Part shown: positions 39,998-53,377 of the stretch, in pieces
Position numbering within the stretch: the stretch's first letter is position 1
Layout of the letters: every line of letters begins with the position of its first letter
Origin: a virus
Length of the DNA stretch: 60,762 nt
Strand: one strand, 5' to 3'
Virus record (IMG/VR): IMGVR_UViG_3300025151_000038
Span: 1 to 60,762 of that record
Notes under the pieces: generated by a model
What the model was told of the DNA's origin: nothing
The model's database searches: none
What the model saw: only the letters and a program-made list of their open reading frames with translations
Position numbers and translations under genes: made by a program

Positions 39998-42900
39998 GTG
40001 GCAACACCAGGCACCCTAGAAGAAACTGAACCTAGTCGTTACGGCTTTGGTTCAGTCCAAGACGCACCCAACTCATTTTTAAAGTTTGATGATTGGAAAA
40101 TAGTTGAGTCTGGAGATATAACAGATCCAGAGGAACAATTAAAACACTACATCGACTACGCTCGCCTGAAGTATTTTGAGCAGGATAGACTGACACCAGA
40201 CAAAGAAGCGCAACTTCGCCAAATCTATATTGATCGCGTAGCCGATGAAGGTCTCGCTGGGGAAGAGCGCAATCAGCTTGGATTACAGGCAACCGCTTTT
40301 AAGCCTAGTATTGAAACTGACTCTAAATGGATTGCGAACGCACATGGCGCTGATAGGGTAGACAGTTTTATTAATAGTGACCCACAGGATCAGGCACAGC
40401 AGGTTACCAAGGCAAAGGAGTTACTTCTGCGTAGAGGACAACTCACGTTTGCTTCAGTTAACAGGGATGGAGATAGTTTTGTCGAAGCCGGTAACTACAA
40501 CACTATCGGTCTAGAAAACAAACAAGGTGCGCGTGAGGAAGCCTTAGCTTCACTAAAAAGTGGCGCTTTAGCACCTTCTGATTTATGGCAAGTTTCGCTT
40601 GGTCTTTCTGATTCTGGTTTTGGGAATCGATCAGCTTTTCAAGCTGACCAAGACAAAGATGTCTTAGGTGATTTACAAGAGCTTTTAGCTAAGGAGTCAG
40701 AGTCTGATGAGGGTGGTCCTTTAACAGACGCACTGGAATTAATGTCCTATCAAAAAGGATCTAATATTTTCCAGCAGATGTTTGGGGATGATCCCAAGAC
40801 AATCACAGAAGTTACTCTGGAAGATACTCCTTACGTCCTTCACCGTGTGCAGGATGCGCTCCTTAAACAATATAATGAGAAGCATGGAATTAAAACGCGC
40901 AGAACGCTCACAGATTCCGACAAGTATTCAAAGGATCGCATAAGAACTTTAACACAAGAACTAGTTGCTCGTCATGCTAACGAGAACAACGTCTTTGATT
41001 TTGACGCGGAAAATCCTGTTAATAATATTCGCACTACCAAATTGGGAATTCCATTAGCAGACCCGCGCCTGATGATGAGGCGTGATGATTTTAATGGTGC
41101 AATAGATACACATAAGGGTTTATCAGAAATCCAAAAGGATGTGTTGAAGCAACAGCGTGAATTTTTCATGCTCCAGAGGGTGGGTCGATATGACCGCATT
41201 CTGGGAGACTTCACAGCTACTAGTAGTAAATGGAACTCACTAAAGGCAACTGACCCCGATGCCTTTAAAGAGAACCCCGTTGGTGTTCTGGACGAGTTCT
41301 TGTCCGATGACGAAAACTACGCTTGGTTTAAGAATAGAGCAGCCGGTGTAGGGTCTTCTGCGGTAGATGCTGTGTTGGGTTTAGTTCACAGTGTTGGTGT
41401 GATGCTGGGTAGTGACTCGTCGCTTGACTACCTTGTCAGTCACCAGAAGGAAATGCAGGAGCGAGCCGAACTGGCGAACCTCTTTGGTGATGAATTAGGA
41501 ACTACTTATCAGGTGCTTTCGACAGCAACTCCAATGATCGCAGACATTGGGGCAACTTACCTGCTGGCTTCTGCCTCTGCTGGTGTTGGTGGGGCTACTT
41601 ATGTTGCAGGTAAGGCCACCGCCAGAGGAATTGCCAAAGCTATAGGTAAGAGGGAGATGCGGCAGGAAATTGCAGAAAGTTCAGTAAAAAATTTAACGGA
41701 ATCAAAAGCAGGAAGATTTGCAGCAGGTCGCATTACAGCGGCAGCCAGTGGGGATGAAGGCTTAAAAGGGGTTCAAATGCTGAATAGAGGGATGAAGGCG
41801 TGGACGAAAAAACGCCACCTTTACCCTGCAACAGTTGTCTCTGTAGCCAACAGGGTGGTTGGTTCTTCTTATGCCACTATCTACTCAGGGCTTCCAGATG
41901 ACCCCAACCTGACAGAAGAGGAGAACGAACAGTATAAAAGAGACAGGGCTTTAGGTTATAGTATTTCGGCAGGCATCGCCGCCGGATTGGTCACTGTTGG
42001 ATTCAGTGCGGTGGGTCGAGGTGGTCTTGAATCTGTCTTTGCTGGTAATGGCACTTTTAAGCAGGTTAAAGGTATCTTCAATGATATTGCGCGGAGAAAA
42101 ATTACAGGCACAGGTTTATCTGATGAGGCCGTTGTTGCTGTTTTAAAGAAGTCCGCAGATAAGGCTTTTAAACATCTACGCAAACAAGAACCCGCATTAG
42201 CTAGGGCAAGAAGATTACCTGGACCTGTCAGGGGTTTCATGGATGAGGCTACTGAAGAGGCAACGCAGGAACTCTTTATTGCATTGATAGAGGATGCCGC
42301 CCTTAATCAGAACACCCCAATGATTGACCTGCTCCACAGGGTTTACAATGCAGGTAAGGTTGGTGGCTTTTTAGGTGGCGGTGTTGCCGCTGTGCGCGGT
42401 GCTGTTGTTCGCGCAAAGGGAGTAGATACTCTTCCTGACCCTGATCGTTTCAGGAAAAAACAAGCTAAAATAATTGCCAATGATATAGCTGACCGCTTAG
42501 AGGAGACTGGCTCCCCATTATCTGCCAAAGCAATTAGAGATCAGTTGCTTACTTCTCGACGCCAGACAACCCCAACACGCCGGACTACAACAGCAGAAAC
42601 CGCACCCACGCCAGCCACACCTGCGCCGACTACTACCCCACCCCTGTGGACAGGCTCTGAGCGTATAGATTACGGAGATGTCGTAATCTTTAATGGCGAG
42701 AGACATGTTGTCGATGGGGTTTTGGGCGACCCCGCTGGTTCACTAGTAATTTTAAATCGAGAAAGAGATGGAGCAGAGGTTGAAACTTCGGAAGAAGAAA
42801 TAAGAAGACACCATTGGCCTGCGACATCAAAGCCCCTAGAAGCCAGTAACGAATTAAAGCAAGCCAATACTGACGTAGAACAAGCTAAAATTAATCAAGA

Positions 42901-53377: not shown

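Follow-up and report, generated by a model that had tools for sequence, protein, structure and literature searches.

The virus record IMGVR_UViG_3300025151_000038 in IMG/VR (here called the window, meaning the whole stretch of DNA that was analyzed, 60,762 nucleotides [nt] in length) contains one giant open reading frame (ORF) of 4,459 codons, the product of which belongs to a very large family of giant phage proteins built on a fixed chassis: a conserved N-terminal block (N block), one peptidase-like [H/E]ExxH domain, and a conserved C-terminal block (C block), with exchangeable cargo between them. Giant injected phage proteins and polyvalent proteins are already known. What is new is this family and its chassis, which has no curated model and is absent from curated libraries; the compensation between degenerate and intact copies of the [H/E]ExxH domain; the absence or near absence of cysteine across the family, a property common to the virion RNA polymerases (vRNAPs) of N4-like phages; and the first sequence-level link between such a chassis and the injection region of N4 gp50. 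We consider it reasonably probable that the window protein is a virion-packaged carrier, probably ejected into the host, on the theme of polyvalent proteins and N4 gp50.

An exhaustive HMMER/phmmer search with amino acids (aa) 3330 to 4459 as the query returned 1,034 cluster representatives at E ≤ 1e-3, of which 167 were found at E ≤ 1e-30. Word-indexed searching did not suffice, giving just 2 matches for the N block, 4 for the C block, and 3 for an N-block profile, and the exhaustive search was required. The C block matches at the extreme C terminus of proteins that are mostly 3,000 to 6,000 aa long. A scan of viral contigs (relatives labeled L, with family proteins labeled P) placed it on 14 IMG/VR contigs at 29 to 38% identity, and all 13 of the contigs inspected (L015 was left out) contained an uninterrupted ORF, from at least 2,706 to 4,042 aa, ending in the C block; a pattern scan of viral contigs for the N block gave no match. 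Mapping by BLASTP and jackhmmer onto the window protein found residues ~100 to 880 conserved in at least 90 giants and residues ~3100 to 4459 conserved in 65 to 163 proteins, with residues 900 to 3100 almost without counterpart. About 90 database giants contain the N block and the C block together. The pieces of the middle that are held in common (the HExxH domain, aa 2012 to 2107, and aa 2745 to 2941) occupy unrelated positions in other giants, and the family is therefore one of conserved N and C blocks around a freely exchanged middle. Motifs in the consensus of the C-block alignment include KTLGSxGFYxRN, FYKIxYFE, and APFxRFxxEVPRI. The chassis can be split between genes, because L003 encodes the N block and the HExxH domain as a complete protein of 1,276 aa and cultured phages have shorter C-block proteins. 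The parts of the giant ORF are as follows.

39998..42577, plus strand: conserved N block, aa 1-860, found in at least 90 full-length family giants
Within the N block: Gly/Ala-rich hydrophobic helices at aa 451-469 and aa 651-673 (hydrophobicity peaks)
42215..42397, plus strand: N-block signature, aa ~740-800, in which an acidic helix (D-E-A-x-E-E-x-x-x-E) precedes the Gly-rich segment GGFLGGG, aligning with N4 gp50 aa 378-439
42557..42649, plus strand: Thr/Pro-rich linker, aa ~854-884
42674..43237, plus strand: small beta-rich module, aa ~893-960, and Lys/Glu-rich predicted coiled coil, aa ~961-1080, conserved only in L002
43238..43891, plus strand: intact zincin-like domain, the extra copy, aa 1081-1298, with HELVH at aa 1181-1185 (nt 43538-43552) followed by E1188 (HExxHxxE)
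43892..44587, plus strand: insertion of ~230 aa parting the HExxH domain from its helical continuation, common only to L002
44588..44935, plus strand: aa ~1531-1646, helical continuation of the HExxH domain, which it directly adjoins in L003 and L005
44936..49312, plus strand: hypervariable cargo region, aa ~1647-3105, composed of small modules in a mosaic, none with a family assignment
46031-46318, plus strand: module aa 2012-2107, recurring in P0041, P0037, and P0096
47744..47800, plus strand: (PATPA)3-type Pro/Ala/Thr linker, aa ~2583-2601
48182..48241, plus strand: (PA)6 linker, aa ~2729-2748
48230-48820, plus strand: module aa 2745-2941, recurring in P0003 and P0127
48995..49072, plus strand: (EP)9 linker (aa 3000-3017) with an ATPASKPS tail, aa 3000-3025 in all
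49313..50029, plus strand: ancestral [H/E]ExxH domain, degenerate, aa 3106-3344, the motif site reading L-A-S-A-R
50198..53374, plus strand: conserved all-alpha C block, aa ~3401-4459, the family hallmark, homologous to phi18:3 gp123

An earlier note on this DNA, made from the sequence by eye, had divided the protein into a hydrophobic N-terminal region, a Thr/Pro linker, a Lys/Glu stretch, an HExxH domain, three Pro-rich linkers, and a C-terminal region. That outline was correct, with the C-terminal region measuring about 1,350 aa, and what it overlooked was the conserved N and C chassis, with its one obligatory [H/E]ExxH domain and hypervariable middle, together with the second, degenerate HExxH copy in the C-terminal region. 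The small modules it described as ending in F-x-(S/T)-x-EEA do not stand as repeats, with self-BLAST finding nothing at E < 1, and the size it called exceptional is not so, given clade relatives of 3,030 to 6,024 aa. In the large family described above, modules are sporadically reused at other positions. A jackhmmer self-match between aa 864 to 982 and aa 2578 to 2693 probably reflects the Thr/Pro/Ala-rich composition of linkers. At the DNA level, the giant ORF has short, near-identical Pro/Ala-coding repeats at two of its linkers (42603-42642 and 47743-47795), and these recur in an upstream gene of 468 aa (38005-38076). The beginning of contig L002 matches them as well, and modules might be exchanged by recombination at such repeats.

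The ORF listing and the translation confirm the single GTG-initiated frame of 13,380 nt, about 22% of the genome, that had been noted by eye: it occupies 39998..53377 on the plus strand, encodes 4,459 aa, and has no internal stop anywhere in its 4,459-codon translation. A chance open frame is ruled out because (61/64)^4459 is ~1e-93. Nucleotides 1 to 99 of the window are identical to nucleotides 60664 to 60762, an assembly overlap, and the window therefore represents a circularly closed, complete genome of ~60,663 bp, of which the giant ORF makes up 22.1%. The GTG start call is supported because the N terminus is kept in P0002, a homolog with 31% identity (MATPTT.. versus V/MATPGT..), and because GTG starts recur in the relatives L003, L005, L006, L010, and L013. 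By eye, no recognizable Shine-Dalgarno sequence is present at 39960-39997, before the conserved GTG (..TAATCAGTTTCATTTATTGTG); this and the GTG starts of several relatives may be a hint that the host makes weak use of Shine-Dalgarno sites. Continuity of the giant frame is not universal, because the closest relative, L002, has two in-frame TAA codons. Its N-terminal product of 481 aa is 79% identical to the window giant, and at L002:3340-3480 the frame reads ...LVK*QK*SQE..., with the two stops four codons apart at about codon 482 (corresponding to window positions ~41430-41470, codons ~480 to 486 of the giant ORF). Past the TAA pair, at least 2,458 further codons of the frame are open and conserved, and the pair could represent a gene split with reinitiation, readthrough, recoding, or a sequencing error.

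The window protein has a single HExxH sequence, HELVH at aa 1181, and iterative searches identified aa 3106 to 3344 as a paralog of the domain that carries it (aa 1081 to 1298). Common to both kinds of copy are a conserved strand, I-x-V-N-P, preceding the motif, the motif helix itself, and a near-invariant Glu 60 to 110 residues downstream, which is a gluzincin arrangement. Across the family, the first motif position is Glu in 77 sequences and His in 27, the second is Glu in 105/119, and the fifth is His in 106/118. A census of 109 members found 95 with an intact conserved copy alone, 8 with this copy degenerate and, upstream of it, an intact extra one, 6 with none intact, and 0 with two intact, giving exactly one intact motif in 103/109. 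The window protein is among the eight, with L-A-S-A-R at the ancestral site and HELVH at 1181; the extra copy was found in L002, L003, L005, L006, P0003, P0072, P0062, and P0012. The compensation of degenerate by intact copies in the census argues that one functional copy is needed, although the eight extra-copy cases may stem from one or a few duplications and amount to a pattern, not statistical proof. Compared with L003 and L005, the window has its intact copy split by the insertion of ~230 aa. An AlphaFold model of aa 3061 to 3709 gave the domain predicted local distance difference test (pLDDT) values of 80 to 88 and consists of a beta-hairpin followed by the motif helix, plus a helical bundle. 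Metal binding and proteolysis by the [H/E]ExxH domain are putative functions. PDB sequence searches with the HExxH region and with profiles of the C block, the N block, and the Z-domain returned noise. In many giants (P0036, P0130, P0132, P0009, and others) the [H/E]ExxH domain lies 1,500 to 4,100 aa upstream of the C terminus, apart from the C block, and cargo can therefore flank the domain on both sides; P0130 and P0132 also have a second, degenerate copy near aa 1,100 to 1,300.

The C block connects the family to virions. A hidden Markov model (HMM) of the C block matched gp123 of Cellulophaga phage phi18:3 at E=1.8e-72, and the GenBank record describes gp123 as a structural protein with "annotation based on experimental MS/MS proteomics analysis," that is, tandem mass spectrometry (MS/MS). 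This protein is the sole experimental anchor and shows that virions contain the C block. The same HMM matched a 1,027-aa "ADP-ribosyltransferase" of Pseudoalteromonas phage vB_Pun_Y3 (E=2.8e-126), gp85 of Pelagibacter phage HTVC027P (E=8.9e-62), and a 2,156-aa protein of Xanthomonas phage DES1 (E=1.3e-35). All four are encoded at the ends of virion-gene modules, and at 1,027 to 2,156 aa they are much shorter than the family giants. The virion association that had been proposed for the window protein is thus upheld by the homology of its C block to a protein detected by MS/MS and by the place of the gene in a plus-strand block led by the gene for the terminase large subunit (TerL), and packaging of the protein in the virion is likely. 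Phage Y3 (L001:402-13776, accession no. OR779980) has two adjacent cysteine-free giants, a 3,421-aa "DdrB-like ParB" protein followed by the 1,027-aa ADP-ribosyltransferase (ART) with its C block; the two take up 27% of the 48.9-kb genome, in which an N4-gp56-type capsid gene is present and a tape-measure gene is absent. In the main text of the paper on the HTVC027P transcriptome, gp85 is not mentioned.

The AlphaFold model of aa 3380 to 4459 is almost wholly alpha-helical (pLDDT, 70; predicted template modeling [TM] score, 0.57). A Foldseek search of predicted viral structures in BFVD with this model gave 34 matches at E ≤ 1e-3 (best, 1.4e-24; TM ≤ 0.57), and these were the last chunks of giant phage proteins, including one from Cellulophaga phage phi19:3. 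Their names include "Large polyvalent protein associated domain-containing," "ART-PolyVal-like," "RelA/SpoT," "Helicase/UvrB," and "LT_GEWL." Weak matches to cyanopodovirus "internal virion proteins" were also found, at E=2.9e-3 (probability, 0.99) and E=0.02.

Cysteine is excluded from the giant, occurring at 0 of 4,459 positions compared with 136 of 12,581 (1.08%) in the other 47 ORFs counted as genes (P=9e-22). Each of 15 related giants has 0 or 1 cysteine, and there is none in gp123, gp85, the DES1 protein, or the two Y3 giants, nor in N4 gp50 and eight other N4-like vRNAPs. The two genes directly upstream in the window, of 468 and 387 aa, make up with the giant a run of 5,314 consecutive cysteine-free codons in three genes (37401 onward). 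Other cysteine-free genes of the plus strand, presumably of the virion block, are at 10229-11437, 13004-13759, 21490-22389, and 24287-25120, and the replication and minus-strand genes have 1 to 4% Cys.

The link to N4 was found with profiles built from nine N4-like vRNAPs. The N block aligned with the N-terminal region of N4 gp50 at an hhalign P value of 1.3e-4 with 30% identity, compared with P values of 0.22 to 0.75 for six off-target control pairs. The match covers the most conserved signature of the family, E-x-x-E-E-G followed by LGGxxGxG, at aa ~740 to 800 in the window protein and aa 378 to 439 in N4. In the [H/E]ExxH domains of the family and of N4, the strand and the motif helix align (hhalign P=0.007), and both the window protein and N4 have the context HELVHAxxxE, whereas the family motif is mostly EExxH.

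Polyvalent proteins of phages and of conjugative elements, as described in passages of the study by Iyer, Burroughs, Anand, de Souza, and Aravind (2017; PMC5512222), are very large, multidomain proteins encoded beside head and packaging genes and are predicted to be packaged, injected, and processed by zincin-like metallopeptidases. Each polyvalent protein combines 2 to 15 different effector or enzyme domains, and the signature domains include ART-PolyVal, MPTase-PolyVal, LPD, MuF, and ParB/DdrB. The retrieved passages of that paper do not contain the chassis, the one-intact-motif rule, or the absence of cysteine. When 21 family giants were compared with Pfam, ART-PolyVal was found in 3/21 (best E=4.7e-40), DUF7178 in 5/21, DUF3990 in 1/21, and a methyltransferase in 1/21, and the remaining giants, like the window protein, had no cargo recognizable to Pfam. 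The family overlaps the polyvalent proteins because ART-PolyVal occurs in relatives, where it is the only PolyVal-named Pfam family among the 21 scanned; the Y3 homolog is an ART fused to the C block. The window protein has no match to any of these signature domains (PolyVal, LPD, MuF, or ParB/DdrB) in Pfam, even at E ≤ 1, and no model in the copy of Pfam that was searched matched the N or C block. It does consist of many linker-separated modules, the HExxH domain being the one whose signature looks catalytic. Its gene closes the plus-strand block led by TerL, as expected for packaging-linked polyvalent genes. The earlier assignment to polyvalent proteins therefore agrees with the ART-PolyVal domains of relatives, the Y3 fusion, and the names of the Foldseek matches. 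Because the HExxH domain is the one module of the window protein to which an enzymatic activity could be assigned, both "multi-enzyme" and "counter host defences" are inferences from relatives. That the middle consists of effectors, and not of a spacer or of structural material, is a tentative reading, which we hold with somewhat less than even conviction.

The giant is the last gene of a plus-strand block, the other genes of which are as follows.

35429..37207, plus strand: TerL, the first gene of the block (phrog_2, E=1.5e-15)
37401..38807, plus strand: 468-aa gene between TerL and the 387-aa gene, with no cysteine and with Pro/Ala repeats, a portal candidate by position only
38814..39977, plus strand: 387-aa gene with no cysteine, syntenic and immediately 5' of the giant, kept upstream of giants in related contigs

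In related contigs with an upstream flank, a gene of 320 to 430 aa precedes the giant, and this gene family is homologous to the 387-aa gene of the window. A hint of Patatin in the 387-aa protein (E=0.0055) was rejected, as only 1 of 11 orthologs showed it. The genes 3' of the giant are convergent with it and include a 477-aa DNA methyltransferase just downstream (54027-55460, minus strand; phrog_363, E=2e-51), which may have an anti-restriction function beside a putative injected protein. The replication module (primase, family A polymerase, exonuclease, and helicase) lies at 25.9 to 34.3 kb on the minus strand, and a second plus-strand block at 7.2 to 25.7 kb contains other virion genes, including separate tail and fiber candidates. 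Apart from TerL, one "virion structural protein," and genes of replication, searches against Pfam, PHROGs, and NCBIfam with the giant and the neighboring virion genes were uninformative.

In the mechanism that we propose, the C block with the [H/E]ExxH domain would direct incorporation into the capsid, as the last 1,400 aa of N4 gp50 suggest by analogy. At infection, the protein would exit through the tail as an extended chain, with a membrane-active N block leading or assisting it. The metallopeptidase-like domain would then cut the chain, plausibly at or near the linkers, and so free cargo modules in the cell, where the released middle modules could act on the host early in infection. Some relatives have cargo of recognized host takeover or anti-defense types (ART-PolyVal and methyltransferase and, by structure match, RelA/SpoT, lysozyme, and helicase). 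Cysteine would be excluded because the chain travels extended through the tail, and its absence would fit a protein that must avoid cross-links and remain competent to unfold, both inside the capsid and while crossing the periplasm. In the window lineage, the ancestral peptidase-like copy may have decayed as its role was taken by the duplicated intact copy earlier in the chain. Of the steps in this scheme, ejection into the cell is one on which our judgment is evenly divided.

Several results weigh against this proposal. Support for packaging of the window protein comes through the homolog gp123, and its ejection and proteolytic release are putative steps. Family HMMs did not detect the N block or the [H/E]ExxH domain in gp123, gp85, or the Y3 and DES1 proteins, and in these phages the chassis is incomplete in one polypeptide. 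The N-block match to N4 is short (61 columns; hhalign probability, 54%), and the C block has no similarity by hhalign to the C terminus of N4 gp50 (P=0.22). The first residue of the [H/E]ExxH motif is usually Glu and not His, which is atypical for zincins; Foldseek comparison of the domain model with the PDB gave nothing significant (best E=0.17), and the domain profile gave isolated, subthreshold zinc-peptidase matches only among PDB sequences and Pfam. The term "zincin-like" is accordingly a reasoned label that rests on the arrangement of the motif and not on demonstrated membership. The C-block model had no Foldseek match in the PDB at E ≤ 0.001 (best E=0.08), and the cargo modules of the window protein had none in Pfam, PHROG, or the PDB.

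The main alternative, which we regard as unlikely, is a purely structural protein of the internal core or ejectosome, equivalent to a fusion of T7 gp14/gp15/gp16 or of the P22 ejection proteins, that would build a conduit through the envelope, with a middle that is a spacer or is adapted to the envelope and does not consist of delivered effectors. It would account for the structural status of gp123, for the Gly/Ala-rich hydrophobic helices of the N block, for the weak Foldseek matches to cyanopodovirus internal virion proteins, and for a window middle without an identifiable enzymatic module, and the LT_GEWL-bearing relative recalls the transglycosylase of T7 gp16. However, the middles of relatives contain enzyme domains that act in the cytoplasm (ART-PolyVal, methyltransferase, and the RelA/SpoT-named matches), and a mosaic middle that varies in length by thousands of residues ill fits a conduit of defined geometry. 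Structures of T7 gp15 and gp16 have been deposited, and neither is among the matches listed for the C-block model, which found nothing in the PDB at the threshold given above. A host recognition or adhesion protein, such as a giant fiber or decoration protein whose variable middle tracks the diversity of host surfaces, is considerably less probable still. The hypervariable mosaic among related phages, the small beta-rich modules with Pro-rich linkers, and the virion location of gp123 could be read in that way, but both termini are conserved, whereas fibers usually vary at a receptor-binding C terminus; the C block is all-alpha over ~1,060 aa; Pfam and PHROGs detected no Ig, collagen, beta-helix, or tail-fiber families; separate tail and fiber candidates are present at 7.2 to 25.7 kb; and relatives contain enzymes of intracellular type.

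There is very little chance that the protein is a divergent N4-type vRNAP or a tape-measure protein, even though its size, gene position, and N4-like region order, as well as hydrophobic Gly/Ala-rich segments of a kind that occurs in tape-measure proteins too, would be compatible with one or the other. The HMM of the N4 RNA polymerase domain, built from the nine vRNAPs, had no match at E ≤ 10 in 172 family proteins, including that of the window, in agreement with the earlier impression that neither tape-measure nor RNA polymerase character was present, and the family blocks did not align with the N4 polymerase region (hhalign P=0.23 to 0.26). An essential polymerase is impossible in a middle that lacks all conservation from one family member to another. 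A tape measure would be an unbroken alpha-helical rod encoded after tail-chaperone genes, with a conserved length that scales with the tail; here, the chain is interrupted by Pro-rich linkers and beta modules, the gene comes after TerL and two further genes near it and not after tail chaperones, and lengths run from 3,000 to 6,000 aa among close relatives. Both readings were rejected. An artifact of assembly or annotation, with several genes falsely fused, is equally improbable: the two in-frame TAA codons of L002 at about codon 482, the complete 1,276-aa protein of L003 with N block and HExxH domain, and the occurrence of the C block in proteins of 1,027 to 2,156 aa in cultured phages point toward it, and against it stand the stop-free run of 4,459 sense codons in the window, the uninterrupted ORFs, with the same two blocks, of 13 independent contigs that come from different samples, the ~90 database giants with both blocks, and the closure of the window contig on itself.

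A broader form of the packaged-carrier reading is that the N block, the [H/E]ExxH domain, and the C block may constitute a general protein injection chassis of tailed phages, of which N4 gp50 would be a specialized case and by which any inserted polypeptide would be packaged, ejected, and released by the peptidase. We consider this doubtful, but its consequences would be wide. The ~2,200 unassigned residues of the window protein and the middles of the family would be a reservoir of undescribed first-strike effectors against host defenses, with thousands of linker-delimited modules as candidates for anti-defense or host takeover functions; the absence of cysteine would be a physical requirement of the delivery route; and it would be explained why many uncultivated phages spend 15 to 25% of the genome on one gene. 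The N and C blocks would also be portable packaging and injection signals for loading phage particles with engineered proteins. The relatives include a member of the HTVC023P-type pelagiphages, a group reported to be the most abundant known marine viral group (bioRxiv 10.1101/2019.12.14.876532). The one-intact-[H/E]ExxH rule and the exclusion of cysteine are directly testable, and both bear on the passage of proteins through phage tails.

Among known systems, T7 gp14, gp15, and gp16 are comparable to the window giant: they are large, mostly alpha-helical proteins, kept in the capsid until their ejection, after which they bridge the envelope. They differ in being separate proteins of fixed length without hypervariable cargo, and no sequence similarity between them and the giant was found. 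Another comparison is with gp50 of N4 (Schitoviridae), a giant of 3,000 to 3,600 aa that is packaged in the capsid and injected. In the passages of PMC5512222 that describe it, an alpha-helical N-terminal region of ~1,000 aa for injection is followed by the polymerase and then by a C-terminal 1,400 aa for encapsidation, this last part consisting of an HExxH metallopeptidase-like domain and another domain. As far as those passages go, the regions thus follow the same order as in the window family: N-terminal region, cargo, HExxH domain, and C-terminal region. The gene position is also alike, as in N4-like phages the gene ends the virion block and is convergent with oppositely oriented genes, as it is in the window; the other virion genes of the window phage, in contrast, match no N4-type model. 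The cargo differs as well, being an RNA polymerase in N4 and variable and unassigned in the window family. The best reading is that the family and N4 gp50 share a delivery design but neither the cargo nor a recognizable C-terminal domain, and from the alignment of their signatures they probably share an ancestral N-terminal element. If the chassis is as general as proposed, the injection principle of N4 gp50 would extend beyond RNA polymerases.

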